Assembly: GCA_050942745.1 (NCBI GenBank)
Contig: JBMNNX010000001.1
Span: 22,938 to 86,937, forward strand
From: Myxococcales bacterium
Lineage (GTDB): Bacteria > Myxococcota > Myxococcia > Myxococcales > UBA5297
DNA length: 64,000 nucleotides
Direction: 5' to 3'
A model generated the notes under the pieces. That model did not search any database and was not told the origin of the DNA. It saw nothing but the letters and a program-made list of their open reading frames with translations. Both the position numbers and the translations under genes were made by a program. Positions 3,046 to 56,170 of this stretch are shown here, in pieces; positions within the stretch are counted from its first letter, which is position 1, and every line of letters begins with the position of its first letter.

Positions 3046-3831
3046 TCAGGACCAGCGAGTGAGCAGCCGGTCACGATCGAAGAAGCGCACCGCGACCCGC
3101 AGCATCACGACGTCGGCGGCCAGAGCGGCGAGCGCGGTCAGCGCGTAGGCGAGCGGGCCAAAGGCGAGCAGTCCGACGAACTGCAGGACCACGACGCCGA
3201 CGAAGGGCATGACCACCAGCCCCGCGAGCGACTGCGCGAGCCGCACGTCGCTCACCCGCGCGCTGATCAGCACCGAGATGCAGTTGCCGAGGAACGACAG
3301 CAGCGGCGCGAGCACGAAGACGGCGAAGAGGAAGGTGGCGTCCGGCAGCACGAGCCGGCCGAGCAGCGGCCAGCAGATGAGATCGGCACCGACGGCGAAC
3401 ACCACGAAGGCGACGAGCGTGATTCCCGTCGCCGGCACGACCGTCGCGAGGCTCTTCCCGAGCACCAGCTCGCGCGCGGTGATCGGCGTGGCGAGCAGCG
3501 GCTCGAGCGTGCGGCGCTCCTTCTCTCCGGCGACCGACTGCGAGGCGATGAGCACCGGCAGGAAGACCGGCATCGCCAAGAAGAGCCCAATGGCGTTGCG
3601 CAGCGTCACCTGGACGATGGCCTCGGAGATCGGCGTGTCGCCGAGGTCTCCGACGTACCAGCGCGCTATCGCCGCCACGCTCGGATCGTTCGCACCGCGC
3701 ACGTAGGTCGCGAGAACGAAGAGCGAGACGACGACCATCGTGATCGGCAGCCCGCTCAGCGAGGCGATCAGCGAGCGGTTGGAGAGGATTTCGGAGAGCT
3801 CCTTGCGGAGGACAATCGCGGCGCGGCCCAT
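3046..3831 (-). CDS. ABC-2 type transporter permease
   Basis: 261 aa with about 6 hydrophobic spans. It has the N-terminal ...LRKELSEILSNR... and GEKERRTLEPLL motif typical of ABC-2/NatB-like permeases. ATG at 3829-3831. Confidence 0.7.
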   Translation of the reverse strand: MGRAAIVLRKELSEILSNRSLIASLSGLPITMVVVSLFVLATYVRGANDPSVAAIARWYVGDLGDTPISEAIVQVTLRNAIGLFLAMPVFLPVLIASQSVAGEKERRTLEPLLATPITARELVLGKSLATVVPATGITLVAFVVFAVGADLICWPLLGRLVLPDATFLFAVFVLAPLLSFLGNCISVLISARVSDVRLAQSLAGLVVMPFVGVVVLQFVGLLAFGPLAYALTALAALAADVVMLRVAVRFFDRDRLLTRWS

Positions 3832-4049
3832 AGGCTCACGGTTCTTTCATTCGGCGGATGGGGCCGTCAACGGCAGGCATGATGCGCCGGCTTCGGAGGC
3901 TGGACGGCGGAGCGGGACGAGGATGGACGGCGGAGCTCCAGCTCCGCCACGCCGTACCGATTGGCTGGGCGGCCAGGGCGGCGCGAAAGCCCCAGCGGCC
4001 GAGCACAATCACCACCTCAACTCTCGACCCTCGACCCTCGGGCTGTCGG
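3808..4049. repeat. direct repeat copy A (about 242 bp): permease first 8 codons plus its upstream region
   Basis: Aligns by eye at roughly 85% identity with 4951..5193. It begins gaggacaatcgcggcgcggcc and ends with the ctcgaccctcgaccctcg heptads. Confidence 0.85.
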
Positions 4050-4405
4050 TCGACGCATCGCCCCCGGTAAGCCAAGTGCCCGGCGCGCCTGAAGAAGGCC
4101 TGTGCCAGGCAGCGCGATGCGAACGGCGCGCATCACCGCACTCGGGGAGGCGACGACGATCACGAAGGCCCCGGTGTCCGAACAGTAGTAGGCAGTATTC
4201 GCAGAGCCATGTCGGCAATCGGCGACCACCGTACCCGCCCTTGCCGCGTGGGCTTTTCGACTTGCGCGGTTCGTGAGGCGTGAGGCTCCGAGTAGGCTGC
4301 TCGGGGCTCGAAGACGGAACCCCGCCCCGACGAATCGAGGCCGGGCACTCCAAAGTCGCCTCTTCCAGCGGCCAGTCGCCTGCTGGGATTTTGAAGAAGC
4401 CTCTG

Positions 4406-4814
4406 GCATCCGCCAATCGTCTTCTGGGAGACAGAGAACGGCTTTGGCGCGCGCCAATCGTGTTCTGGGCGACAGAGAACGGCTTTGGCGCCAGCTAATC
4501 GTGTTCTGGGCGACAGAGAACGGCTTTGGCGCCCGCCAATCGCGTTCTGGGAGTCAGAGAAGGCCTCGGGCGCTGGGAAATCGCGTTCTGGGAGCCAGAG
4601 AACGGCTTTGGCGCCCGCCAATCGCGTTCTGGGAGCCAGAGGAGGCCTCGGGCGCCCGCCAATCGCGTTCTTGGCGCCGGAGAAGGCCTTTGGCGCCCGC
4701 CAATCGCGTTCTTGGAGCCGGATAAGGCCTCTGGCGCCCGCCAATCGTCTTCTGGGAGTCAGAGAACAGCTTTGGCGCGCGCCAATCGCGTTCTGGGAGC
4801 CGGAGAAGGCCGTG
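4406..4814. repeat. tandem array, 10 units of about 41 bp, each an imperfect hairpin
   Basis: Consensus GGCGCCCGCCAATCGCGTTCTGGGAGCCAGAGAAGGCCTTT. Ten consecutive units were read directly. 41 is not a multiple of 3, so all three frames give the same pseudo-peptide. There are no spacers. Confidence 0.9.
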
Positions 4815-4950
4815 GCTCCGACTCAGCCTCTCGGCAACCGCGTTCCCGCGAGCGCGAGCACCCTGTCGAATTGAGCCCGGGTCACCGGCGCCACCGAAAG
4901 CCGCGTGCGCGTCACCAGCGCGAAGTCCTTCAGCGCCCCGTCCACTTCAC

Positions 4951-5193
4951 GAGGACAATCGCGGCGCGGCCGACAGGCCCACGGTCCTTTCGTTCGGCGG
5001 ATGGGGTCGTCAACGGCGGGCACGATTCGCCGGCTTCGGAGGCTGGACAGCGGAACGGGACGAGGCGAGACGCCGGAGCCAGCTCCGCCCCACCGTGCCG
5101 ATAGCTGGGCGGCCAGGGCGGCGCGAAGCCCCAGCGGCCGAGCACAATCACGACTTCAACTCTCGACCCTCGACCCTCGACTCTCGACTGTCG
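4951..5193. repeat. direct repeat copy B (about 243 bp) with a relic permease start (ATG replaced by GTC)
   Basis: The minus strand reads V-G-R-A-A-I-V-L, against M-G-R-A-A-I-V-L for the real permease, then diverges and hits a stop after 14 codons. Confidence 0.85.
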
Positions 5194-5254
5194 CCGGCAA
5201 TGTCAGCCCCCCTTGCTAGCCTCCTCGCACCACACTTCGAGGAGGCCCCCGACC

Positions 5255-5500
5255 ATGACGATCCGCAGCCCGAGCAACGCGCAGGTGATCCGCCACGAGA
5301 CCTTCGACGCGACCGAGCTCCGCGCCTTGCGCGCACACCGCAAGGGCAAGATGCGCCTGCTGCTCGAGGTGAACGCCTCGCGCCTTTCGAGCCTGCTCGC
5401 GGCCGACGACGACCGGCAGCTCTACCGCTGCACCGAGTTCGACAGCGAGGCCGAGCTGCTCTCGGCCTTCGAGCGCGCCGCGCTCGCGCTCGCGCGCTAG
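5255..5500 (+). CDS. small hypothetical protein (81 aa)
   Basis: ATG at 5255 is preceded by GGAGG at 5241-5245. Third positions are G/C-rich. I recognise no motif. Confidence 0.45.
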   Translation: MTIRSPSNAQVIRHETFDATELRALRAHRKGKMRLLLEVNASRLSSLLAADDDRQLYRCTEFDSEAELLSAFERAALALAR

Positions 5501-5684: not shown

Positions 5685-6014
5685 TCAGCGCATCTTGCAG
5701 CGCTCGATACAGGCGACCAGCTCGCGCAGGTGCGGCTCCTCTATCCGGTAGAGCGCGTGCCCGCCCCTTCGCGTGGCAGCGACCAGGCGGCGCATCCGCA
5801 GTATTCGCAACTGCTGCGAAACGATGGCCTGCTTTGCCTCGAGCAGCTCAGCGAGCCGTTTGACGTGGAGCGGCTCCTCGCACAGCAGGGCGATGATCTG
5901 CAGCCGCAGCGGATGGGCGACAGCCTTGAGGATCTCGGCCGCTTGCTCAGCCTTCTCCGGCTCGATGGGCTTCAAGGAGGGCGCGTGCTTTCGACGGGCT
6001 AGGGTCCCGGGCAT
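5685..6014 (-). CDS. ArsR/SmtB-family transcriptional regulator
   Basis: Winged-helix signature ...LKAVAHPLRLQIIALLCEEPLHVKRLAELLEAKQAIVSQQLRILRMRRLV.... The start was chosen at ATG 6012-6014 (GGAG 7 nt upstream) rather than 6050, which lacks an RBS. Confidence 0.8.
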   Translation of the reverse strand: MPGTLARRKHAPSLKPIEPEKAEQAAEILKAVAHPLRLQIIALLCEEPLHVKRLAELLEAKQAIVSQQLRILRMRRLVAATRRGGHALYRIEEPHLRELVACIERCKMR

Positions 6015-6053
6015 GAGATCGCTCCAGTGGACAGACGCACGACCGTTCATCTA

Positions 6054-6992
6054 TCAGATTTCACTGGTCGACTGGCCAGCGCCGCCGCCGACGAGCTCGA
6101 GGTAGGCGCGCTCGAGCTCACGCGCCGCGGGCCTGACCGCCTGGATCCTCCCGCCGAGCGCGACGATCCGGCCGACGAGCTCGGGGACGCCGTCGGAAGC
6201 GGCGATGCGCACGCGCAGCGTCCCCGCCTCGGCCTCCACCGCCTCGATCCCCGGCGCGCCTCGCAGCCTCTCGGCGAGCCCAGCGGCCTCTTCGGCCAGC
6301 TCGATGGCGACATGGCTTGTGCCCGAGAGCAGGCTCGAGATCTCGCCCATGGCGAGGATGCGCCCCTTGACGATCGCCACCCGGTCGCACAGCCGCTCGG
6401 CCTCGTCGAGGTTGTGGGTGCACAGGACGATGGTGCGCCCCTCGCCGGCGAGCCGCTCGACCAGCGCGCGCACGGTGGCGCTCGCCTCCGGGTCGAGCCC
6501 GCTCGTCGGCTCGTCGAGGAAGACGACCTTCGGCTCGTGGATGAGCGTCCGGGCGATGGCGAGCTTCTGGCGCATGCCCTTCGAGAAGCCGCCGACCCGC
6601 TCGTGCTCGCGCCCGCTCAGCCCGAAGGTTTCGAGCACCTTCCCGATGCGCTCGCGCGCCGTCGCTTCCTCGACCCCGTAGAGGCGCGCGAAGTAGAGCA
6701 GGTTCTCGAGCGCGCTGAGCCGGTCGTACAGCCCAGGCTGCTCGGTGAGCAGGCCGACCGAGGCGCGCACGCCGAGGTCGTCGGCGCCCAGCCGCAGCCC
6801 GCAGATCTCGGCCTCGCCCTCGCTCGGCGCGAGCAGGGCGCACAGCATGCGCACCGTGGTCGTCTTGCCGGCGCCGTTGGGCCCGAGCAGACCGAAGACC
6901 TCGCCCTTGCCGACCGAGAAGCTGAGCCCCTCGACTGCCGTGCGCTCGCCGAAGCGGCGCCCGAGGTTGCGGGCAACGATCGCCTCGCTCAT
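6054..6992 (-). CDS. ABC transporter ATP-binding protein (ABC-2 exporter type)
   Basis: Walker A GPNGAGKTT, signature FSKGMRQKL, Walker B VVFLDEPTSGLD, and H-loop CTHNL. Confidence 0.9.
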   Translation of the reverse strand: MSEAIVARNLGRRFGERTAVEGLSFSVGKGEVFGLLGPNGAGKTTTVRMLCALLAPSEGEAEICGLRLGADDLGVRASVGLLTEQPGLYDRLSALENLLYFARLYGVEEATARERIGKVLETFGLSGREHERVGGFSKGMRQKLAIARTLIHEPKVVFLDEPTSGLDPEASATVRALVERLAGEGRTIVLCTHNLDEAERLCDRVAIVKGRILAMGEISSLLSGTSHVAIELAEEAAGLAERLRGAPGIEAVEAEAGTLRVRIAASDGVPELVGRIVALGGRIQAVRPAARELERAYLELVGGGAGQSTSEI

Positions 6993-7043: not shown

Positions 7044-8918
7044 TCAGTTCACCGAGACCAGGTAGAACTTGTTGCAGCTACGGTCCGCGATCTCCACGGT
7101 GCGCCCCTTGGCCTCGATGATGTTCTTCATGCCGTTGAAGCGGCTCTGCTCGACGACGAGCCACAGCGGCCCTTTGTGCGCGAGGAGCTCGTGGAACTTT
7201 GTGGCGTCCTTGATCTGGCGGATGTGGTTCGACGAGTAGAAGGTCTCGCCGCGCCAGTTCATGTAGTAGGCGCCGATAGGCTCGTCGGGCGAGCCGCGCT
7301 GCTCGTAGTAGGCCCAGAAGATGTCGCGCTGCGACCAGTGGAAGCTCAGGTCCTTCCAGTGGACCCAGGAGACGTAGACCGCGAAGCTGGCGGCGATGAC
7401 CGCGAAGGTGCCGGCGAGCATCTTCTTGGCCCGCCACACGTAGGCGAGCACGAGCCACAGCCCGCCGCCCACGAAGATCACCGAGAAGACCTGCTTCGGG
7501 TTCACCTCCACCGAGGGGTACGGCCGCTCGTAGTTGTAGACGAACAGGTTGACGAGGTGCTTCGGGGCGAGCCAGAGGTTCTGGGCTATCGCGGCGAAGA
7601 AGGCGATGCCGAGCAGCACCGGCACCGCGTTCCCCTCTATCCCCTCGCGCCACAGCTTGTCGGCGTAGAGCGCGGCGAGGATCGCGAGCGGCGGCACCAC
7701 CGGGAAACAGTAGTGGTGGAACTTGGTCGCGCTCATCGCGAAGGTGAAGAACGAGGCCGCCGCCCAGATCGTGACGAAGAGCGCGCCGCGGCTCTTGGTG
7801 TCCTGGTCGCGCGGGCGCAGCTTGCCGATGAGCGCGAGCGCCCCCGGCACCAGCGCGGCCCAGGGGAACATCGCGAAGCCGAGCTGCTCGATGAAGTAGG
7901 CGAAGGTGCCGCCGGGCGTGGTGGTGTGGACCCCGGCGCCCAGGCGCTTGAAGTGATCGTGGACGAAAAAGCGGTAGTAGAAGGTCTTCGACTCGTCGTC
8001 CTTGCCGTCGAACAGGATGAGGGTCAGGTACCAGGGCACCGCGATGATCACGAGCAAGGCGATGCCGTGGAGCGCCCGCGAGCGCCGCAGCACCTTCCAG
8101 TCCCAGGTGACCAGCAGGTAGACGAGCATGATGAGCCCGGGCAGCGCGAACCCGAGCAGCCCCTTGGCCAGGGTCGCCAGGCCGAAGAAGGCGTAGGCGA
8201 GGCACCACCAGAAGGTCGCCTTCGGCGAGCGCGCGGTGCCGTTCGGGTTGAGCTCGCCGCGCGTCTTCGGGTCGAGCTCGGCGATCATGAAGCAGGCGAG
8301 GCCGCTGGCCATCAGGGTCACGAACGGCGTGTCGGTCACCGTCTGGCGCGCGAGCAGGAAGTAGAGCGGGCTGGTCGCGGTGGCAAAGCCGGCGATGAGC
8401 CCGGCGCGCCGGCTGAAGACTCGCCCGACGGCCAGGGTGATCAGCCCGACCGCGAGGATGGAGAGCGCGGCGAACGGCAGCCTCATTCCCCACTCGGTGT
8501 AGATGCCCAGGGCCGCGTTGCCGTTGAGCGCCCCGGACGCCCACAGCCCGAAGGCCTGCAGCCACATCGTCAGCGCGGGCTTGGAGAAGAAGTAGGCGTT
8601 CTCCCAGTACGGGAAGAGGTAGTCGCGCTTGGCGACCATCGTGCGCGCGACCTCGCCGTAGTGGACCTCCCAGGGGTCCCACAGCCCGACCGCGCCCAGC
8701 CACGGGATGAAGACGAGCGCGGCGAACAGGGTCGTCGAGAGCACGTCGCGCGCCTCGGCCGGGAGCGCGAGCCAGCGCTTGACCAGGCCGAGCCCCATCA
8801 CCCGCTTGCCGAGGATCGACTCGACGATGCCCGGGCCCTCGTCGTGCTCCTTAGCGCCGGGCGGCACCTCCTGCAGCTCCCTGCGCGCGCCCAGGTCCTT
8901 GTCCTTTGGCTTGGCCAT
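7044..8918 (-). CDS. GT39-family (ArnT/PMT-like) membrane glycosyltransferase
   Basis: 624 aa and polytopic. N-terminal loop motif LWDPWEVHYGEVARTMV...YFFSKPAL, typical of the dolichyl/undecaprenyl-phosphate sugar transferase family. ATG 8916-8918 with GGAG upstream. Confidence 0.7.
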   Translation of the reverse strand: MAKPKDKDLGARRELQEVPPGAKEHDEGPGIVESILGKRVMGLGLVKRWLALPAEARDVLSTTLFAALVFIPWLGAVGLWDPWEVHYGEVARTMVAKRDYLFPYWENAYFFSKPALTMWLQAFGLWASGALNGNAALGIYTEWGMRLPFAALSILAVGLITLAVGRVFSRRAGLIAGFATATSPLYFLLARQTVTDTPFVTLMASGLACFMIAELDPKTRGELNPNGTARSPKATFWWCLAYAFFGLATLAKGLLGFALPGLIMLVYLLVTWDWKVLRRSRALHGIALLVIIAVPWYLTLILFDGKDDESKTFYYRFFVHDHFKRLGAGVHTTTPGGTFAYFIEQLGFAMFPWAALVPGALALIGKLRPRDQDTKSRGALFVTIWAAASFFTFAMSATKFHHYCFPVVPPLAILAALYADKLWREGIEGNAVPVLLGIAFFAAIAQNLWLAPKHLVNLFVYNYERPYPSVEVNPKQVFSVIFVGGGLWLVLAYVWRAKKMLAGTFAVIAASFAVYVSWVHWKDLSFHWSQRDIFWAYYEQRGSPDEPIGAYYMNWRGETFYSSNHIRQIKDATKFHELLAHKGPLWLVVEQSRFNGMKNIIEAKGRTVEIADRSCNKFYLVSVN

Positions 8919-8960
8919 GCGTGCTCCGTCTTCCGCCGACCGGTGGCGAAAAGCCGGGCC

Positions 8961-8969
8961 GTTATATCA
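8961..8969 (-). promoter_or_regulatory. candidate extended -10 promoter element for the GT39 operon
   Basis: The minus strand reads TGATATAAC (TGnTATAAT-like), an isolated AT-rich patch about 43 nt upstream of the GT39 ATG. Confidence 0.3.
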
Positions 8970-9244
8970 GGGGATTCGCTGGGTTGGCTCGCCTTCTGTC
9001 GCGTGCTGCACTCTGGCTTGCGCCCCCCTGCCCGCTCGCCCGGCACTCTCGGCAACTCCCGGCCCGCGCCCCCGGCTCGGGCGCTCGTGGGCGCAGGGCG
9101 GCCCCGCGGAGCGCGCGAGGCGAGGGAGCGCTCGAAAGAGCGCACGGGGAGGGTTCCAGCAGGGTCCGGTTTCGAGGTAGAAGGGGTGCTGCAACAAGGG
9201 TAGGCGAGCGTGCGACAATGTCGTAAGCCCCCGAGGAGGCAACC

Positions 9245-11329
9245 ATGCACTTGCGAACCACCATCGTCGCGGCAGTCCTGCTCGCGTCCGCCCAGGCCGT
9301 CGCGGTCCCCTGCCCGGACGAGCTGCCCGTGCTGTTCGTCGTCCAGGACAAGTCGAACTCAATGTGGGCGGTGCCCTCGGCCTCCTGCAGCACCTGCCCG
9401 CGCAAGTGGGAGTCGTCCAAGGTGGCGGTCACCAGCCTGGCCACCTCGTTCTCCAACCGCTTCCGCTTCGGCCTGCAGATGTACCCGCGGGAGGCGACGA
9501 GCTTCAACTGCAACACCGGCACGGTGCGCAGCGCGGTGCCCGCCACCGCCGCGCAGATCGAAGACGCCTACGAGACTTACTACCCGGGCGGCGGCACCCC
9601 AACCGCGGCGAGCCTGCTGGCCGCGCGCAGCTATCTCGACAGCCTGAACCTGGGCGCCGGTGAGCCGGCGTACGTGCTGCTCATCACCGACGGGCTGCCC
9701 AACTGCAGCGACCAGCTCAACCCGCAGACCTGCGGGCAGATGACCACCGGGTGCGCGAGCACCGCGGAGGGCTGCGCGTCGAAGGACTGCCTCGACGACC
9801 AGGCGAGCGAGCAGGCGGCCGCGGCGCTCTGGGCGGCCGGCTACAAGGTCTACGTCGTCGGCTTCGGCTCCGAGGTCTCGGCCGACAACGACAAGCGCGT
9901 CCTCGACGCCATCGCCCAGGCCGGCGGCACCGGCCAGGCGCTGGTCGCCACCGATCAGAACGGGCTCATCGCCGCCCTCGAGCAGGTCGCCTTCAACGCC
10001 AGCACCTGCTGCGAGGACGTCTGCGCCGCGGGCAGCTCGCAGTGCGTGAGCGCCACCTCGGTCAAGCGCTGCCAGCTCGACGCGTCCATCGGCTGCACCA
10101 CCTGGACGGTGAGCGCCTGCCCGAACCAGAGCGCCTGCGTCAACGGCGCCTGTCAGACCTGCACCGACGCCTGCACCGCGGGCTCGAGCCGCTGCAGCGG
10201 CGACACCGCCGAGCGCTGCGAGGTCGGCGCCAACGGCTGCACCTCCTGGGTCGCGGCCGACGAGTGCACCTGGGGCGAGGTCTGCAGCAACGGCGCCTGC
10301 GTGTCCTGCGAGAGCTGCACCATCGGCGACAGCCGCTGCGTCGGCGCCTCCTCGGTCGAGCGCTGCGTCCGCGACCTGTGGACCGGCTGCACCGACTGGG
10401 AGCGCTCGAGCTGCCTGAACGGCTCGGTCTGCGCCAACGGCACCTGCGAGAGCTGCGCGACCGAGTGCACCGCGGGCTCGAAGCGCTGCGTGGGCGACGT
10501 CCCCGAGGCCTGCGTGGCCGACAGCCAGGGCTGCACCTCATGGCAGGCCGGCGCCCGCTGCACTGACTTCTGCAGCGGCGGCGCCTGCGAAACCTGCGGG
10601 ACCGACTGCGCCATCAGCGAAGTGCGCTGCAATGGCGCGACGGTCGAGCGCTGCGTGATCGACGCCAACGACTGCCCGGTCTGGGAGCTCAGCGACCGCT
10701 GCGAGGCGGGCGAGCTGTGCGTCAACGGCCGCTGCGAGCCCTGCCCGGTGCAGTGCGCCGCGGGCGAGCGGCGCTGCGACGGCACGAGTGTCGAGACCTG
10801 CTTGGCGCAGGCCGACGGCTGCAACGCCTGGGCGGCGAGCGCCTGCGCGGCCGGTCAGATCTGCCTCGACGGCGCCTGCACCGAGCCGTGCAGCGACGCC
10901 TGCGCCGAGGGCGAGGTGAGGTGCGACCTGCAGGGCGTCCCGCAGACCTGCGAGCGCGCCCCGAACGGCTGCACGGTCTGGATGTCCGGCGCCGAGTGCG
11001 CTGACGACACCGTCTGCTACCAGGGCCTGTGCCGCACGCGCTGCTCGGGCGGCGAGATCGAGACCTGCCGGAAGGGCTTCATCTGCACCGGCCTGCCGGA
11101 GGGCCGGCTCTGCCTGCCGCGCGAGGACGAGCCGAACGAGCCGCCGACGCCGCAGGATCCGAGCGACGACCCGAGCGACGACCCGGGCGCGGGCGGCGCC
11201 GATCCCATCGACGGCGAGCCGGCGGTCACCACCGTGGACACCGGCTGCGGCTGCGGCGCCGCCGGCGGCACCGCGCTCGCGCTGCTGGTCGCTCCGCTCG
11301 CGCTCGCGGCCCTGCGCCGTCGCCGCTAG
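9245..11329 (+). CDS. secreted vWA-domain protein with seven ~48-aa Cys-rich repeats and a MYXO-CTERM-type tail
   Basis: Signal peptide MHLRTTIVAAVLLASAQAVA. MIDAS motif DKSNS. Seven repeats of C..G..RC.....ERC......C..W....C.....C..G.C. C-terminus ...DTGCGCGAAGGTALALLVAPLALAALRRRR. Confidence 0.8.
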   Translation: MHLRTTIVAAVLLASAQAVAVPCPDELPVLFVVQDKSNSMWAVPSASCSTCPRKWESSKVAVTSLATSFSNRFRFGLQMYPREATSFNCNTGTVRSAVPATAAQIEDAYETYYPGGGTPTAASLLAARSYLDSLNLGAGEPAYVLLITDGLPNCSDQLNPQTCGQMTTGCASTAEGCASKDCLDDQASEQAAAALWAAGYKVYVVGFGSEVSADNDKRVLDAIAQAGGTGQALVATDQNGLIAALEQVAFNASTCCEDVCAAGSSQCVSATSVKRCQLDASIGCTTWTVSACPNQSACVNGACQTCTDACTAGSSRCSGDTAERCEVGANGCTSWVAADECTWGEVCSNGACVSCESCTIGDSRCVGASSVERCVRDLWTGCTDWERSSCLNGSVCANGTCESCATECTAGSKRCVGDVPEACVADSQGCTSWQAGARCTDFCSGGACETCGTDCAISEVRCNGATVERCVIDANDCPVWELSDRCEAGELCVNGRCEPCPVQCAAGERRCDGTSVETCLAQADGCNAWAASACAAGQICLDGACTEPCSDACAEGEVRCDLQGVPQTCERAPNGCTVWMSGAECADDTVCYQGLCRTRCSGGEIETCRKGFICTGLPEGRLCLPREDEPNEPPTPQDPSDDPSDDPGAGGADPIDGEPAVTTVDTGCGCGAAGGTALALLVAPLALAALRRRR

Positions 11330-11412
11330 GGTGTAAAGGGCGGCCCGCCCGCTCGATTGGCCCCCGGGAAACAGGGTAAGTTCCCCGGGGGCAAGCACCC
11401 CCGAGGATCAGC

Positions 11413-12645
11413 ATGAACATCGAGGCGAGCTGTCTTCCCCACCCCGAGCGCGAAAGCGCGTACCTGCTCTTCCTGGAGCTGAGCGCCGCGGACGAAGGCG
11501 CCTCCGCGCGCCAGCCGGTCCACCTCGCCCTGGCGATCGACGCCTCGAGCTCTATGGGCGGGCCGCGGCTCGCGCGCGCGGTCGAGGCCGCCCGCGCGGT
11601 CGTCGACAGGCTCGACTCGGAAGACACCTTCTGTCTGCTCGCCTTCGACCGCTCGGTGCGCGTGCTCTTCGGTCCGGGGAAGGCCAACGGCGAGGGCCGC
11701 GCGGCCATCTTCAAGGCGCTCGCCGAGCTCAAGCCCGGCGTCGGCACCAACCTGCACGCGGCCATAGAGCAGGCCCACCAGCTCATGCGCCGGGTCTTCG
11801 TGCGCGGCACCCGGCCGCACGTCATCGTCCTGACCGACGGCTATCCGTCGGTGGGCGCGATGGACCCGCAGGAGTTCCTCAAGCTGACCCGCGCGGCGGC
11901 CTCCGAGGGCATCGTCACCTCGGCGATGGGGGTCGGGCTCGACTACGACGAGTCCGCCGTCGGCGCCATCGCCACTGGCGGCGGCGGGCGCTACTCGTTC
12001 GTCGACAAGGCCTCGGACATCCCCGGCGCGCTCGCCCAGCACCTGTCGGACCTCTTCGCGATCGCGGTGGAGAACGTGACGGTGCGCGTCTCGCCGGCGG
12101 GCGCGGTGCGCGAGGCGCGGCTGCTGCACCGCTACCCGACCAAGGTGAGCCCCGAGGGCTTCGTCGTCGAGACCGGGCCCATCGGCCGCGGCAACCCGCG
12201 CCGGCTGCTGTTCGAGCTGAAGACGAGCGCGCGGCCCGAGCCGGTGGCGGCCACCATCGCCCTCACCGTCCACGGCTCGGGCAAAGCGCCCGACCGCATC
12301 CTGTCGGTGCCGGTCGATCCGGATGCACCCTCGGCCCGCGAGGCCGAGCGCGAGCTGTGGCGCCTGAAGCTGTCGGACCACGAGACCGCGTTCTGGGACG
12401 CGGTCCACGAGAACGACAAGCCCGCGGCCGCCCAGGCGCTGACGGCGGCCGAGATCGCGCTCGAGAAGCTGCTCGACTGCGGCGCGACGCCCGCCGAGGT
12501 CGAGCCGGATCGCCTCCGGCTGCGCGACGATCAGGCCGTGCTCGAAGGCCGGCTCTCGCACGAGGCCCGGGAGGCGGCGCGCAAGCGCTCGCACCACACC
12601 GCCATCTCGCGCGTGACCAGCCTGACCGGAAAGACGGACGAGTAG
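11413..12645 (+). CDS. vWA-domain protein, no signal peptide
   Basis: MIDAS motif DASSS (LALAIDASSSMGG), then GTNLHAAI and VIVLTDGYP. C-terminal helical region. RBS GAGGA upstream of the ATG. Confidence 0.7.
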   Translation: MNIEASCLPHPERESAYLLFLELSAADEGASARQPVHLALAIDASSSMGGPRLARAVEAARAVVDRLDSEDTFCLLAFDRSVRVLFGPGKANGEGRAAIFKALAELKPGVGTNLHAAIEQAHQLMRRVFVRGTRPHVIVLTDGYPSVGAMDPQEFLKLTRAAASEGIVTSAMGVGLDYDESAVGAIATGGGGRYSFVDKASDIPGALAQHLSDLFAIAVENVTVRVSPAGAVREARLLHRYPTKVSPEGFVVETGPIGRGNPRRLLFELKTSARPEPVAATIALTVHGSGKAPDRILSVPVDPDAPSAREAERELWRLKLSDHETAFWDAVHENDKPAAAQALTAAEIALEKLLDCGATPAEVEPDRLRLRDDQAVLEGRLSHEAREAARKRSHHTAISRVTSLTGKTDE

Positions 12646-12716
12646 CGGCGCTTCACCCGCTCGCAGCGCTCCCCGATCCGCCCCGGTCCGCGGGTCTCGA
12701 GAGCCTCGGAGGTCGA

Positions 12717-13481
12717 ATGAACAAGGCCATCGTCGCGCTTGCGCTGTGTCTCCCGCTCTTCGCGTGGGCGGCCGACGTGCTGTCCGAACACCAGATCGAG
12801 CGACGCCATATCGAGGAGAGCCTCTTCAGCTTCGTCGTCCACCGGACGACCTGGATCCCGAGCGTGCCCGACTCGCTCAAGGCGCTGCCCGCCTCCAAGC
12901 GCCCCGAGGTGGTGCGGGCCCTCGGCCAGTTGGCCAAGGCCTACTTCAGCTCCGAGGCCTTCCAGAAGCGCTATGCCGAGGCCCGCCAGGCCGCGCAGCC
13001 GCAGAAGCCCGCGCCGCCCAAGCCCGGCAAGGTCCTCGCGGCCGAGGTGAAGGCCGAGCTCGAGCGCAACCTCGCCGGCACCGAAGACCAGATCAAGCTC
13101 CTGCCGCCCGATCAGCAGGCCACGGTGCGCCAGGCGCTCGCCGAGATGAGAGCCGTGGTGCCGACCGACCCGGTGCTCCTCGAGCAAGCGGAGCAGGCGC
13201 GCTACCAAGACGAGCTGCGCCGGTACGAAGAAGCGCGCGCGCGGCAGCCGCCCGAGGACCCGCGCAAGGCCGTGAAAGCGGGGCTCGAGCGCTTCCTCGA
13301 GCTGTGCGACGGGGTGGACTTCAAGGCCAAGCTCGTCGGCGAGGAGGGGAGCCCGCGGCGCTTCGAGCGCGGGGACTACGAGTCAAAACCCAACGAGTGG
13401 AAGGCGTGCTTCCGCGCCGGCAAGGAGGCGACCGAGGCGGCGCGCGCCTTCGCCCGCGAATGGCTCAAGACGCTCGAGTAG
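12717..13481 (+). CDS. secreted helical hypothetical protein
   Basis: Start re-set to ATG 12717 (GGAGG at 12708-12712). Signal peptide MNKAIVALALCLPLFAWA. Lys/Glu/Gln-rich helical sequence. Confidence 0.6.
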   Translation: MNKAIVALALCLPLFAWAADVLSEHQIERRHIEESLFSFVVHRTTWIPSVPDSLKALPASKRPEVVRALGQLAKAYFSSEAFQKRYAEARQAAQPQKPAPPKPGKVLAAEVKAELERNLAGTEDQIKLLPPDQQATVRQALAEMRAVVPTDPVLLEQAEQARYQDELRRYEEARARQPPEDPRKAVKAGLERFLELCDGVDFKAKLVGEEGSPRRFERGDYESKPNEWKACFRAGKEATEAARAFAREWLKTLE

Positions 13482-13613
13482 GCAGCCCGAGGCGGCACCC
13501 TCGCCAACGCCGTGCGAGCGAGCACTGAACCGGGCGCCGCCTCTCCGGTCCGAGTCAGTCCTCCTTCACTCCACCGCGCGCTCCGACGCGGCTCGGGAAC
13601 CCGGCGCCCCTGG

Positions 13614-15967: not shown

Positions 15968-16274
15968 GAGCGGAGTCGAAGGGCTCGTCGATTCCGCGCG
16001 GCGCACCCGTTCGCCCTGAGCGTAGCTCCCGACGCGCAAGCGGCGGGAGCGGAGTCGAAGGGCTCCTCGATTCCGCGCGGCGCACCCGTTCACCCTGAGC
16101 GTAGCTCCCGACGCGCAAGCGGCGGCAGCGGAGTCGAAGGGCTCGTCGATTCCGCGCGGCGCACCCGTTCACCCTGAGCGTAGCTCCCGACGCGCAAGCG
16201 TCGGGAGCGGAGTCGAAGGGCTCCTCGAACTCACGCAGGGCCCTCGAATCCGCCTCCCGCGTTCCGCGGGAGGC
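15968..16274 (+). repeat. composite intergenic repeat: 3 full 79-bp units, a truncated unit, and a terminal 10-bp GC hairpin
   Basis: Units start at 15968, 16047, 16126 and 16205 (exact 79-bp period). Each holds the stem GCTCCCG..CGGGAGC. The terminal hairpin is GCCTCCCGCG-TTC-CGCGGGAGGC at 16252-16274, abutting the GT4 stop codon. Confidence 0.9.
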
Positions 16275-29727: not shown

Positions 29728-36870
<7,143 letters not shown>

Positions 36871-36944: not shown

Positions 36945-37349
36945 AGCCCCGCGAGCATCGACGGCCCCTCGACCCTGGGGGCGAGGCCAATAGCGTTCGG
37001 CCTGAGTGTGGCTGCCGTTGACGTCGGCAGCGGAGTCGATGGTCCCCTCGACCTGGGACGAGGCAAACACCGTTCGGCCAGAGCGAAGCTGCCGACGTGT
37101 GCGTCAGCAGCGCAGTCGAACGGCCGCTCGTTCTTGGGCGAGGCCGATACCGTTCGGCCCCGAGCGCAGCTGCCGACGCGCAAGCAGCGGGAGCGAAGTC
37201 GAAGGGCCCCTCGTTCTTGGGCGAGGCCAGTACCGTTCGGCCTGAGCGTAGCTCCCGTCGCGCAAGCGGCGGGAACGAAGTCGAAGAGCCACTTCGAACC
37301 CAGAGCGGCCCCTCGAATTCGCCTCCCGCGTTCCGCGGGAGGCTACGCT
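36945..37349 (+). repeat. second composite intergenic repeat: about 4.5 diverged 79-83-bp units plus the same terminal GC hairpin as 16252-16274
   Basis: gtcga(a/t)gg landmarks at 36955, 37034, 37114, 37197 and 37279. It ends ...cctcgaattcGCCTCCCGCGttcCGCGGGAGGCtacgctc (hairpin 37320-37342), near-identical to the end of the 16-kb array. Confidence 0.8.
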
Positions 37350-39974: not shown

Positions 39975-40190
39975 CCGTGCGGCGGCCCGCGCACCCCTTC
40001 CGAAGCCTCCGGCTCCCGCGCGCGGCTCGCCGAGCGCCCTTTCCGAGCGTCCGGATCGCCCCTGCGGCGGCCCGAACGCCCCTTCCACAGCGTCCGGAAC
40101 CCTTGCGCGGCTTGCCGAGCGCGCGATTTCCAGACACCGAATCACCCGCGCGGCGATTGAACGGTTCATCCAACCCGGGCCGCGTGCGGC
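39975..40190. repeat. about five diverged tandem units of about 42-43 bp
   Basis: gcggcggcccgcgcaccccttccgaagcctccgg / gcgcggctcgccgagcgccctttccgagcgtccgg / gcggcggcccgaacgccccttccacagcgtccgg / gcgcggcttgccgagcgcgcgatttccagacaccg, and so on. Located in the waaA-M23 intergenic region. Confidence 0.6.
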
Positions 40191-44142: not shown

Positions 44143-44274
44143 GCCGAAAGGCGCTCGCGCTGCGTCGCTCCTGGCCCGGCCGCCGAGGGCTGCGGCCCGA
44201 ACGCTCAGCTTCGCTACCCTTCCCGGCGGTCTCTTGTAGTATTTTGTCCGCTTCACTGCTTGAAGGAGCGCGCT

Positions 44275-45276
44275 TTGTCCGACCGGAAAGAAAACCCGCT
44301 GGCCACCAACATCGCGGACGACGTGATCGCGAGGGCGCTCGAGAGCGTTGAGCGACACGCCAAGCCGGCCAATGAGGCCGAGCCGGCGGCCCAGGAGCCC
44401 GCCGAGCTGCCGCCGCGGGCCGAGGAGGCGCCGGCGGCCGCCGCGGAGCCGGCCGACTCGCAGGCCGAGGTGAAGAAGCTCCTCGACGAGATCCGCGGGC
44501 TGAAGAGCGATCTGCTCGAAGCCCGGCAGGCGCTGCGCCAACGCGAGGCCGAGCTCGAGGCGAGCCAGGCGATGGGCCGCAAGACGATGGATCAGCTTCG
44601 CGAGCAGCACGAGCGCCTGCTGCGCGCCGCCGCCGACCTCGAGAACTTCAAGAAGCGCGCGGCCCGCGAGCGCGAGGAGGCGAACAAGTTCGGTCAGGAG
44701 AAGCTGCTGCGCGAGCTGCTGCCTATCGGCGACAACCTGGACCGCGCGCTCGAGCACGCCAGGTCGCCCTCGGACTTCGAGGGCCTCAAGACGGGCATCC
44801 AGATGACCCGCAGGCTCTTCGACAACACGCTCGCCAAGTTTGGCGCCAAGGGCTTCTCGGCCGTCGGCAAGCCGTTCGATCCCAATCTGCACGAGGCGAT
44901 GCAGGTGGTCGAATCCGACGAGGCGCCGAGCACGGTGCTCCAGGAGATGGTGTGCGGCTACATGCTGCACGATCGGTTGATGAGGCCGGCGATGGTGATC
45001 GTCGCGAAGGCCAAGCCCGCCGCTGCGCCGCAGCCTGCCGCAGCCGAGCAGCCTGCCGCAGCCGAGCAGCCTGCCGCAGCCGAGCAGCCTGCCGCAGCCG
45101 AGCAGCCTGCCGCAGCCGAGCAGCCTGCCGAGCAAGCGTCGGCCGAGAGGCCGCGCGAGCAGGAGTCCGAGGCCGGGGCTGCCGAATCGGCAGCAGCGGC
45201 CGAGCAGACGAGCGCACCTGAGCCCGCCGAGACCGCGGATGCGGCGCGCGGAGGGAAGAGCGCGATCGAGGAGTAG
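44275..45276 (+). CDS. grpE: nucleotide exchange factor GrpE with a long low-complexity C-terminal tail
   Basis: DLENFKKRAAREREEANKFGQEKLLRELLPIGDNLDRAL. The likely start is TTG 44275, 6 nt after AAGGAG (44263-44268). TTG 44260 is the alternative. Confidence 0.85.
   Translation: MSDRKENPLATNIADDVIARALESVERHAKPANEAEPAAQEPAELPPRAEEAPAAAAEPADSQAEVKKLLDEIRGLKSDLLEARQALRQREAELEASQAMGRKTMDQLREQHERLLRAAADLENFKKRAAREREEANKFGQEKLLRELLPIGDNLDRALEHARSPSDFEGLKTGIQMTRRLFDNTLAKFGAKGFSAVGKPFDPNLHEAMQVVESDEAPSTVLQEMVCGYMLHDRLMRPAMVIVAKAKPAAAPQPAAAEQPAAAEQPAAAEQPAAAEQPAAAEQPAEQASAERPREQESEAGAAESAAAAEQTSAPEPAETADAARGGKSAIEE
45031..45132 (+). repeat. five perfect 18-bp tandem repeats plus a partial sixth, inside grpE (encodes QPAAAE x5)
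   Basis: cagcctgccgcagccgag repeated exactly at 45031, 45049, 45067, 45085 and 45103. The partial copy starts at 45121. Confidence 0.95.
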
Positions 45277-48540: not shown

Positions 48541-48545
48541 CGACG

Positions 48546-48578
48546 GTCGAGAGTCGAGGGTCGAGGGTCGAGAGTTGG
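48546..48578 (+). repeat. GTCGAGR heptad micro-array immediately after the dnaJ stop
   Basis: gtcgaga gtcgagg gtcgagg gtcgaga gttgg. The same element occurs at 51048-51080 (+), 4018-4045 (-) and 5157-5193 (-). Confidence 0.85.
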
Positions 48579-49032: not shown

Positions 49033-51048
49033 TTGCTTCGCCAAGCTCCAGCCACCGTTCTTGCCATGTGCGTGGGACTTGCCCTCCTGGGCTGCCCAAT
49101 GCGTGTCGGCTCCAACGAGCTCGACGCGACCTCGCGCGAGAAGGTCGATCAGGCCAGGCTCCAGGTCGAGTCAGGGCGGCCCGACGAGGCCGTGCGCCTG
49201 CTCAACGACGTCCCCGAAGCCAACAACGAAGTCGCCCAGATCCTCTTCCAAGCGGCCGAGGCCCACTACCGCGCCCGCGAGCTCGGGCCCGCGCGCCAGA
49301 GCTACCGCGATCTGCTCGCGCGCTTCCCGCTCTTCCCCGAAAACGACACCGCCCGCTACCACCTCGCGCTCGTCCAACTGGAGCTCAACGAGCATCGCGA
49401 CGCGCTGCAGGCACTTTCGGCGCTCTATCCGCGGCTCGACGAGGATCGCAAGCTCGAGGCGGCCAGCCACCTCGCTCGCGCCGCCGAGAGCTCTCGCCAG
49501 TGGGGCGAGGCGGTGCGCTGGCACGGCGAGCGCGCGACGCGGGCCCGAGACGAGGCGACCCGGCAGGCCGCGGTGCAGCGGGTCTTCGAGATCCTCGAGT
49601 CGCGCGTCTCCTTCCTGGAGGTCGCCCGGCTTGCTCAGCAGATTGAGCCGAGCTCGCCGATCTGGGCTCTCGTGCAGTTCAAGCTCGCGAAGATCTTCGC
49701 GCACCTGCGCGACCGCACCCGCCTGCGCGAGACGCTCGAGACGCTGCTCGCCCACACCCCCGGCTCGCCCTGGGCGTCCGAGGCGCAGTCGATGCTTGCC
49801 CGGCTGGACAGGCGCCAGGAGGTCAAGCCCGACACGGTCGGCCTGCTGCTGCCGATGAGCGGTAAGTTCAAGCCGATAGGCGAGTCGGTGCTCGCCGGCG
49901 TCCAGCTCGCGCTCAAGGGCAGCAAAATCCGCGTCGTCACTCGCGACACCGCCGGCGAGCCGGCCCAGGCGCGCCGCGCGGTCGCCGAGTTGGCCGAGGA
50001 CGAGCAGGTCATCGCGATCATCGGCCCGGTGCTCACCTCGGTCAGCGAGGACGCCGCCGCCGAGGCCGAGTTGCAGGAGACGCCCATCTTCACGCTCACC
50101 CGCGCAGAGGGCATCACCGACATCGGCCCGTACGTCTTCCGCAACATGCTCACCAACAGCGCCCAGGCCGCGGCGCTGGTCGACTACGCGATGCGGGTGA
50201 AGGGCTTCAAGCGCTTCGCGCTGCTCTACCCGAACATCCCCTACGGCAACGAGCTCGCGAACTACTTCTGGGACGAGGTCGAGGCGCGCGGCGGCGAGAT
50301 CCGCGGCGCCGAGAGCTACGACGCAGACCAGACGACCTTCGGCCCGGTGGTCAAGAAGCTGGTCGGCCGCTACTACCTCGACCAACGCGAGGAGTTCGTC
50401 CAAAAGCGGCGCGAGATCACCGAGAAGGTCAAGGACCCGTACCGCCAGCGCAAGATGATCGAGGACGCGTACTCGAAGCTGCCGCCGATCATCGACTTCG
50501 ACGCCATCTTCATCCCCGACTACTACAAGAACGTTGGCCTGGTCGCGCCCGCGCTCGCGGTCGAGGACGTGATCACCAACGCCTGCGACAAGCGCGACCT
50601 CGAGCGCATCGCCAAGACGACCGGGCGCACGCCGAACCAGATCAAGACCGTGCAGCTCCTCGGCGCCAACGGCTGGAACTTCGAAGAGCTCGTCGAGCGC
50701 GGCGGCAAGTTCGTGCAGTGCTCGGTCTTCGTCGACGGCTTCTTCGAGAAGTCGGACCGCAAGGAGACCCGGGCCTTCGTCGAGGAGTTTCGCAAGGCGA
50801 CCGGGCGCGCGCCCTCGCTGCTCGAGGCGACCGGCTACGACACCGCGCTCATCACGCGCCACATCATCGAGACACAGAGTCCGACCACGCGCGGCACCTT
50901 CCGCGAGGCGCTCACCCGCGTCAAGGACTTCCCCGGCGTCACCGGCCGCACGTCCATCAACGAGAAGCGCGAGGCCGAGAAGCCTCTGTTCATGCTCTCG
51001 ATCGATCGCGACGGGATCGCCGAGATCGACAGCGAGATTAAGAGCTAG
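49033..51048 (+). CDS. lipoprotein: N-terminal TPR-like region plus a type-1 periplasmic-binding-fold domain (LivK/LpoA-like)
   Basis: TTG start at 49033 (AAGGTG upstream) gives MLRQAPATVLAMCVGLALLGC (lipobox). ...VGLLLPMSGKF..IGESVLAGVQLAL....VVTRDTAG.P....AV.EL..DE.V.AIIGP.... Confidence 0.65.
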   Translation: MLRQAPATVLAMCVGLALLGCPMRVGSNELDATSREKVDQARLQVESGRPDEAVRLLNDVPEANNEVAQILFQAAEAHYRARELGPARQSYRDLLARFPLFPENDTARYHLALVQLELNEHRDALQALSALYPRLDEDRKLEAASHLARAAESSRQWGEAVRWHGERATRARDEATRQAAVQRVFEILESRVSFLEVARLAQQIEPSSPIWALVQFKLAKIFAHLRDRTRLRETLETLLAHTPGSPWASEAQSMLARLDRRQEVKPDTVGLLLPMSGKFKPIGESVLAGVQLALKGSKIRVVTRDTAGEPAQARRAVAELAEDEQVIAIIGPVLTSVSEDAAAEAELQETPIFTLTRAEGITDIGPYVFRNMLTNSAQAAALVDYAMRVKGFKRFALLYPNIPYGNELANYFWDEVEARGGEIRGAESYDADQTTFGPVVKKLVGRYYLDQREEFVQKRREITEKVKDPYRQRKMIEDAYSKLPPIIDFDAIFIPDYYKNVGLVAPALAVEDVITNACDKRDLERIAKTTGRTPNQIKTVQLLGANGWNFEELVERGGKFVQCSVFVDGFFEKSDRKETRAFVEEFRKATGRAPSLLEATGYDTALITRHIIETQSPTTRGTFREALTRVKDFPGVTGRTSINEKREAEKPLFMLSIDRDGIAEIDSEIKS

Positions 51049-51080
51049 TCAAGAGTCGAGGGTCGAGAGTCGAGAGTTTG
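51048..51080 (+). repeat. GTCGAGR heptad micro-array overlapping and following the stop of the LpoA-like gene
   Basis: gtcaaga gtcgagg gtcgaga gtcgaga gtttg. Confidence 0.8.
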
Positions 51081-55985: not shown

Positions 55986-56170
55986 GGGCCGGCTTCGCGC
56001 CGGCATCCGGGCGCGCCAGCACGAAGGCTGGCGCTCCTCATCTTCGCTCCCGGGCTTCGTTCCGGCTGCCGGGCGCGCCAGCACGAAGGCTGGCGCTCCT
56101 CATCTTCGCTCCCGGGCTTCGTTCCGGCTGCCGGGCGCGCCAGCACGAAGGCTGGCGCTCCTCATCTTCC
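55986..56170. repeat. 62-bp tandem repeat, about 3 copies, each with an 8-bp perfect stem
   Basis: The unit gggcgcgccagcacgaaggctggcgctcctcatcttcgctcccgggcttcgttccggctgcc starts at 56009, 56071 and 56133. The stem is GCGCCAGC-ACGAAG-GCTGGCGC. It lies between the ftsK stop and the SGNH gene start. Confidence 0.9.

Follow-up and report, generated by a model that had tools for sequence, protein, structure and literature searches.

The 64-kb stretch of Myxococcales DNA analysed here (64,000 nucleotides, hereafter the window) carries an array of ten head-to-tail 41-bp units (positions 4406-4815, plus strand), located in a 1.42-kb noncoding gap between divergent genes. Our reading, to which we assign a probability of roughly 0.6, is that this array is a lineage-specific bacterial minisatellite, or variable-number tandem repeat (VNTR). 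At this locus it most likely has no sequence-specific function and acts at most as an inert spacer between two duplicated promoter copies; a protein-binding role for its conserved 18-bp core is possible. Mechanistically, the array would have arisen by tandem duplication of noncoding sequence that flanks a gene referred to here as gene X, about 215 bp downstream of it, within a small uncultured Myxococcales clade. Whole 41-bp units would then be gained and lost via replication slippage or unequal recombination, a process that the dyad-symmetric unit may favour. The copy found in the window would stem from the insertion of ~910 bp into the divergent promoter region of a permease gene and a small gene, with duplication of ~240 bp of the target. 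The main value of this result is that of a clean negative, in which an array first described as ten hairpins becomes an ordinary VNTR and its proximity to an ArsR-family gene becomes coincidental.

The tandem organization itself was borne out. Tandem Repeats Finder (TRF) reported a 41-bp period at 4410-4807 with 9.7 copies, 84% matches and 0% indels, together with an 82-bp higher-order period that scores slightly above it. In-register cutting, the count of the core and an nhmmer profile search likewise give ten units without spacers, with consensus GCGCCCGCCAATCGCGTTCTGGGAGCCAGAGAACGGCTTTG and conserved core AATCGnnTTCTnGGnGnC. Cut in the register of the original prediction, each of the ten units matches the consensus at 35-37 of 41 positions, and the array as a whole has a GC content of 64.5%, against 70% for the window. 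All 10 occurrences of the 18-nt core in the window (0.13 expected) are within the array. Decayed copies flank the intact units on both sides, on the same strand. Units -2 and -1 (4324-4405) occupy the same position in all homologues and are both present in the related loci L001, L008 and L009 described below; unit -1 (4365-4405) scores 11 against the consensus, compared with a background maximum of 8 in 41-bp steps, while unit -2 (4324-4364) is marginal, with a score of 7 against that maximum of 8. The decayed distal unit (+10, 4816-4856) likewise reaches a score of 11, above the background maximum of 8. A clustered regularly interspaced short palindromic repeat (CRISPR) array was ruled out by the abutting of the 41-bp units, which leaves no spacers between repeats.

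Long open reading frames (ORFs) run through the array in several frames and on both strands, and coding was therefore considered as a hypothesis. Codon-position GC from ~3832 to 5212 shows no bias, with all three phases between 0.60 and 0.76, whereas the flanking genes have a strong bias at third codon positions (GC3). Since this bias is missing, the long ORFs are spurious. The longest of them is also shifted out of frame in L001 by a 2-bp indel, and with ORF frames not conserved in the homologues we rejected the coding hypothesis and consider the region noncoding, as had been predicted from its period.

To look for relatives of the array, we searched one representative genome of each of 185,579 species for an exact degenerate unit pattern. 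The scan gave three single matches, about the number expected by chance, one of which is a real homologue: L001, from a metagenome-assembled genome (MAG) of an uncultured Myxococcales in a fermentation metagenome. A two-unit pattern used on a metagenome collection returned the L001 contig again (as L004), the near-identical strain L009, the related strain L008 and four unrelated loci. A further homologue is found in L019 and L020, assembled from SRR28624430 and sister runs of that series, which also yielded contigs identical to the window. Blastn of positions 3800-5250 against a plasmid database gave no match, and a scan of viral contigs for the 41-bp unit found none. Homologous arrays occur only in a few related uncultured Myxococcales. 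The similarity of the window to L001, L008 and L019 extends from ~4141-4147 to the last unit, and the flanking genes are unrelated.

Comparison of these loci reveals how the array changes. The window has 10 units, L001 has 5, L009 has 4 and L008 has 6-7, in each case preceded by the two decayed units. Apart from 2 mismatches over ~1.27 kb, the difference between L009 and L001 is an exact deletion of 41 bp within the array, a hallmark of slippage or unequal crossover. Orthologous units still hold their positions across the lineages, with a first unit of the 'TCTT' type in all of them and the 'TGGGAAA' variant as unit 4 in the window, L001 and L008.

The noncoding sequence that accompanies the array was compared in its rate of change with gene X. 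Between L001 and L019, the gene X proteins are 83% identical and their four-fold degenerate sites 86.5% identical, while the spacer that separates gene X from the array is 83.9% identical; the window spacer (4189-4323, plus strand, from the gene X stop to the array) shows 83-84% identity with L001, L008 and L019 alike. From these alignments the spacer would seem to diverge at about the synonymous rate of gene X, that is, approximately neutrally, and a noncoding module changing at such a rate argues against strong constraint.

The mycobacterial interspersed repetitive unit (MIRU) loci of Mycobacterium tuberculosis are minisatellites whose copy number varies between strains (PMC3635867). Like MIRU/VNTR loci, our array consists of intergenic head-to-tail repeats of tens of bp in a GC-rich genome, with no demonstrated function, with whole-unit copy steps between close strains and with decayed edge units. 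It differs in that MIRUs are dispersed over many loci, whereas the 41-bp unit occupies a single locus in each genome examined, and in that the array is accompanied by a unique spacer of ~215 bp and by a particular gene upstream. Intergenic arrays are, moreover, common in this genome, as the window holds at least four others detected by TRF. The array could potentially serve as a strain-typing marker for this uncultured clade.

In the original prediction, each unit folds into an imperfect hairpin of ~37 nt with nested dyads. Using 21 units from three genomes for the pairing and covariation tests, we found that the consensus is indeed dyad-symmetric: 80% of the cells in the proposed stems form standard pairs, compared with 34-54% after a shift of the 3' partner by 1-3 columns. 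What did not hold is the presence of the hairpin in every unit, because the dyad is poorly kept in many of them. Folded as DNA, only 2 of the 10 units reach z = -2.1 relative to shuffled controls. Folded as RNA, 3 of 10 have z <= -2 on the plus strand and 3 of 10 on the minus strand, with values near -2.2, and the others range from -1.7 to +0.6. There is no compensatory covariation in these 21 units (score 0.156, against 0.158 in shuffles); pairing is at least as good in 454 of 500 shuffles, and an alternative helix gave the same outcome. Variants that break the stem are kept in all three genomes, namely the 'TGGGAAA' unit, a C opposite A11 (14 of 21 units) and a G/G at the 12-30 pair (14 of 21). 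Given the weak folding, the missing covariation and the retained stem-breaking variants, the dyad is a property of the consensus or founding sequence and not a structure held by selection.

These results bear directly on a transcribed role, in which the array would form a multi-hairpin RNA, either stabilizing or terminating transcripts as the 3' untranslated region of gene X, in the style of repetitive extragenic palindromic (REP) sequences and bacterial interspersed mosaic elements (BIMEs), or displaying its loops as a sponge. The consensus pairing would suit such a role, as would the whole-array folding, slightly better than shuffles on both strands (z = -2.3 for plus and -2.0 for minus), and the position of the array downstream of gene X on the same strand in L001 and L019. 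Nine U-G wobbles at one stem position, tolerable in plus-strand RNA only, point the same way. We nonetheless find it an unlikely role, since 6-8 of the 10 units are no better than shuffles (the very comparison that the original prediction had named as decisive), covariation does not exceed that of shuffles, and both the 'TGGGAAA' unit and the C39 variants persist in three genomes. Gene X has also been lost from the window copy. Signals that would accompany such an RNA were not found either. Rfam gave no match over the whole window at gathering thresholds, and between 3700 and 5400 at E <= 10 it returned noise only (microRNA, E > 2); a tRNA/tmRNA scan found none. No sigma-70-like promoter or intrinsic terminator consensus occurs within 3700-5400, although myxococcal promoters may differ from that consensus. 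Two related ideas were dropped: a CsrA sponge with GGA in the loops, because GGA is missing from two units and its frequency does not clearly exceed that expected from composition, and a sigma-54 promoter at the TGGCGC junction, where inspection showed neither a suitable spacing nor a suitable -12 element.

The second suggested role was that of an expanded cluster of a mobile repeat, of the REP type or of the miniature inverted-repeat transposable element (MITE) type. In enterobacteria and pseudomonads, REP/BIME sequences are imperfect palindromes of ~35-40 bp, sometimes in tandem and often intergenic at 3' ends; REPs are present in hundreds of dispersed copies and linked to REP-associated tyrosine transposases (RAYTs). 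The 41-bp unit resembles them in being an intergenic imperfect palindrome of similar length that is tandemly clustered, its module lies in non-syntenic contexts, and the window contains a separate REP-like family with two tandem clusters (see below). It differs from them in dispersal. Neither the window nor the 23 fetched loci contain a solitary copy of the unit when searched with an nhmmer profile of 21 units, so it is not a dispersed repeat; allowing one mismatch in the degenerate core added no site in the window. The unit is limited to one locus in each genome examined, in the window as well as in the representative MAG that bears the homologue, and the array always comes with the same unique spacer, never as a free element. 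It has no terminal inverted repeats or short target duplications, the flanking repeat being instead a direct duplication of ~240 bp, and no RAYT or other transposase was found among the flanking genes scanned or carrying precomputed Pfam hits. We therefore consider a REP or MITE origin very unlikely, and this part of the original prediction found no support.

The four unrelated metagenome loci mentioned above (L005, L006, L007 and L010) were also evaluated as members of a wider 41-bp family, which was rejected: given their weak profile values (E 0.09-1) and a different dyad architecture, they are chance products of the search design. As arrays in their own right, those of L007 (7576-7870) and L005 (1260-1430) have a 41-bp period and contain AATCGGATTCT, with a unit profile E >= 0.67 or no match. 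In L007 the units have a perfect palindrome of 15 bp, CAGAATCnGATTCTG, embedded in a dyad of 35 bp. The L005 array (43% GC) contains palindromes of the form TTGGCGCCAA, and after it comes a second array built from another repeat.

The arrangement of the window locus suggests how the array came to lie there. A permease gene of the ABC-2 family (3046-3831, minus strand; Pfam ABC2_membrane_2, E 6.6e-11; GC3 0.93), with the insert upstream of it, is divergent from a conserved gene of 81 aa (5255-5500, plus strand; GC3 0.96). In a relative, L016 (GCA_037442205.1), the pair is only 105 bp apart; its permease is 70% identical to that of the window, and the gene divergent from it (79 aa) shares 56% identity with the 81-aa gene. 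The 1.42-kb gap of the window is therefore lineage-specific, and consists of a direct repeat R, an insert of ~910 bp (4041-4950) and a second R. Copy A of R (3808-4049) contains the permease promoter region and the first 8 codons, with an intact ATG at 3829-3831 on the minus strand. Copy B (4951-5196) begins with a dead relic of permease codons 2-8 (4951-4971), its start codon having been lost by a change of CAT to GAC at 4972-4974. The two copies (3808-4049 and 4951-5179/5196, ~240 bp each) are 89% identical, and given this divergence of 11% the insertion event was not recent. The mechanism may have been a Campbell-type single crossover of a circular fragment in R, or some other duplicative recombination. 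The insert offers a worked example of a duplicative insertion that kept both promoters of a divergent gene pair. As a separate observation, heptad arrays of the form (CGACYCT)n occur near gene boundaries at 4015-4040, 5151-5193, 48541-48577 (minus) and 51047-51079 (minus). The two-heptad pattern has 13 matches against 0.34 expected, and two of the four arrays form ends of the R repeats.

Within the insert, the proximal part (4050-4140) shows no similarity to any fetched locus, and the distal part (4857-4950) none to other loci. Between them, upstream of the spacer, lies a 3'-terminal remnant of gene X (4141-4188, plus strand), comprising the last ~14 codons (EATTITKAPVSEQ) and the stop, as seen by tblastn and DNA alignment. 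A tblastn search with the L001 gene X matches 4141-4182 alone, and the DNA alignment with L001, L008 and L019 begins there. As only the last 14 codons and the stop of gene X remain, the window copy is a truncated and relocated fragment of the downstream flank of this gene.

Gene X encodes 250 aa, and wherever the upstream side can be read (L001 and L019/L020) the array lies ~215 bp downstream of it on the same strand; the sequences of L008 and L009 end within the spacer. L019 and L001 are 87% identical over 1106 bp that include gene X, the spacer and the start of the array. The family has 8 matches, restricted to Myxococcales MAGs, and no match in Pfam, PHROG or NCBIfam. Its AlphaFold model, a confident one (predicted local distance difference test, pLDDT, of 89), is an all-helical bundle or coiled coil, for which a comparison with the PDB gave nothing better than E 0.15. 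To judge from accession proximity, a homologue of gene X with 59% identity (P0123, MGI5861574.1, locus L021) probably belongs to the MAG that contains the window. No tandem repeat follows this homologue, and the array is thus a recent feature of one sub-clade. On its other side, the distal edge of the array coincides with a variable region: three lineages have three different distal junctions within ~70 bp of the last unit. Relative to L001, L008 contains a 5.5-kb insertion of lower GC content (8137-13585, 56-66%) that starts directly at the distal end of the array. It encodes proteins of 575 aa and 220 aa without an NCBIfam match and a large ATPase-like ORF; an AbrB/MazE-like gene is located near the insertion, and the S41 peptidase gene of L001 has been replaced.

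Several observations weigh against the minisatellite reading. The four-fold sites used as reference are themselves constrained, at 93% GC3, so that 'neutral' is an approximate term. Invariant columns cluster in AATCGnnTTCTnGGnGnC, with 12 of 18 positions in the core against 4 of 23 outside it, which could reflect the constraint of a binding site. The block of gene X, spacer and array is found in different neighbourhoods in L001 and L019 and, with its three distal junctions, hints at something more than passive DNA. Finally, independent Logan contigs that are 99.98-100% identical to the window stop at 3949 and 5165, within the R copies. As to the clustering in the core, it is suggestive, but the overall excess of invariant columns across the 21 units is not significant (16, where the minimum number of events would give 12.9; P = 0.07), and the units are not independent of one another.

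The clustering of invariant positions in the 18-bp core, seen across three genomes, is one argument for a third proposal, according to which the units would be putative binding sites of a dimeric DNA-binding protein, as in a centromere, an iteron array or a decoy. The operator would be either the AATCGnnTTCTnGG core or the TTGGCGCGCGCCAA junction palindrome, repeated every ~four helical turns. Tandem direct repeats with dyad symmetry in each fit this design, and their architecture would be comparable with that of sopC of plasmid F, in which a 43-bp direct repeat is present 12 times and SopB binds a 16-bp inverted repeat within each copy (PMC3177203). Unit length, copy number and within-unit dyad are nearly the same in both, and sopC also lies directly downstream of a protein gene. 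The differences are nonetheless substantial. Our array is chromosomal, the dyad is poorly kept in many units, and divergence looks neutral, with a copy number that varies freely. No parA, parB or rep gene was found among the ~10 genes on each side that were scanned or had precomputed Pfam hits, and the window contains no solitary core sites outside the array. Gene X, the sole conserved neighbour, has neither a DNA-binding fold nor a family match and is gone from the window copy; it was also examined as a candidate array-binding protein and set aside, as the modelled helical bundle has no significant PDB match, no family and no sign of DNA binding.

The original prediction had linked this proposal to an ArsR-family regulator. 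Such a gene does lie 870 bp away (5685-6050, minus strand; Pfam HTH_5, E 2.6e-9), but no ArsR gene is present at any of the three homologous loci L001, L008 and L019. An iteron or centromere role tied to ArsR is therefore unsupported, also in view of the lack of par or rep genes among the scanned neighbours, and protein binding in general seems to us an unlikely basis for the array.

A different interpretation of the same context would be that gene X, the 215-bp spacer and the array form a functional mobile accessory cassette, with the array as its putative cis-acting site. The array could be a platform for some binding protein, possibly recruited by the coiled-coil gene X product, or a hotspot of recombination or insertion. 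If true, this would explain why the internal order is kept across neighbourhoods and why the distal junctions vary, including the L008 insertion. It would likewise account for the movement of a fragment into the window locus and for the invariant 18-bp core in 21 units. The upstream neighbours indeed differ, with an RHS/YD toxin in L001 and a MazE antitoxin and a peptide ABC transporter in L019. We regard this interpretation as rather improbable. The array would gain in importance if a protein were found to bind its core, or if the core turned out to be a hotspot of recombination linked to the gene X family.

The contig ends raise the question of whether the insert is an assembly artefact, that is, a chimeric or mis-expanded MAG contig. 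All the sequences compared are metagenome assemblies, and both the copy number and the linkage of the array to its locus in the window rest on one MAG contig. Short-read contigs of several runs stop at the two positions given above and none crosses the array, L019 and L020 break 1.3 units into their own array, and tandem-repeat copy number is hard to assemble. A chimera is unlikely, however, because identity between the R copies is limited to 89% and they have no exact stretch of 31 nt in common, which leaves no long exact run to cause a false join, and because the window spacer is distinct, being 84-86% identical to that of L019 from the same sample series. Upstream of the gene X relic there is no X-like sequence that could have seeded a chimera, and homologous arrays are present in other assemblies. 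Altogether, an artefact appears highly improbable. The breaks at 3949 and 5165 (the ends of L011-L013 and L014-L015, from several runs) may also mean that insert-bearing and insert-free strains co-exist.

Around the array, the permease is 100% identical to MGI5860442.1, a protein of an NCBI 'Myxococcales bacterium' MAG. The small divergent gene has 81 aa in independent assemblies; a 95-aa ORF version of it has no exact protein on record and was discarded, the 81-aa version being the real gene. Beyond the ArsR gene lie an ABC ATPase identified by Pfam (6054-6992, minus strand) and, further to the right, a PMT_2 glycosyltransferase. The gene lists of overlapping public contigs add SPFH, CHAP, ThiF, VWA, flavodoxin and beta-lactamase genes. 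The ATPase shares its strand with the permease (3046-3831) that is its likely partner, and between the two lie ArsR, the 81-aa gene on the other strand and the insert. In L016, neither an ATPase nor an ArsR gene adjoins the permease.

Elsewhere in the window, intergenic minisatellites occur at a density of about one per 10-13 kb. Two arrays lie between convergent genes, at 15968-16228 (79 bp x 3.3, 96% matches) and 36958-37290 (80-83 bp x 3.9). They share the core CCGACGCGCAAGCGGCGG, a GC stem with a GCAA loop, found 5 times against 0.16 expected; the CCGACGCGCAAGCGGCGG family is REP-like and dispersed, unlike the 41-bp unit. Further intergenic arrays are located at 39987-40122 (42-43 bp x 3) and 55991-56169 (62 bp x 2.9, 96% matches). 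The weak relationship once proposed between the 41-bp unit and the repeat at 39975-40190 comes down to chance, with a single 9-11-mer shared (E >= 0.04). Repeats are also found within genes. An ORF of 2380 aa (29728-36870) contains nested repeats of 93, 102, 186, 291 and 378 bp rich in Cys, Asp and Gly codons (TRF 29929-32777 and 34957-35723), and probably encodes a cysteine-rich repeat surface protein. In the predicted gene at 44260-45276, a perfect 18-bp repeat of 5.6 copies (45030-45130, 100% matches) would give an in-frame hexapeptide repeat.

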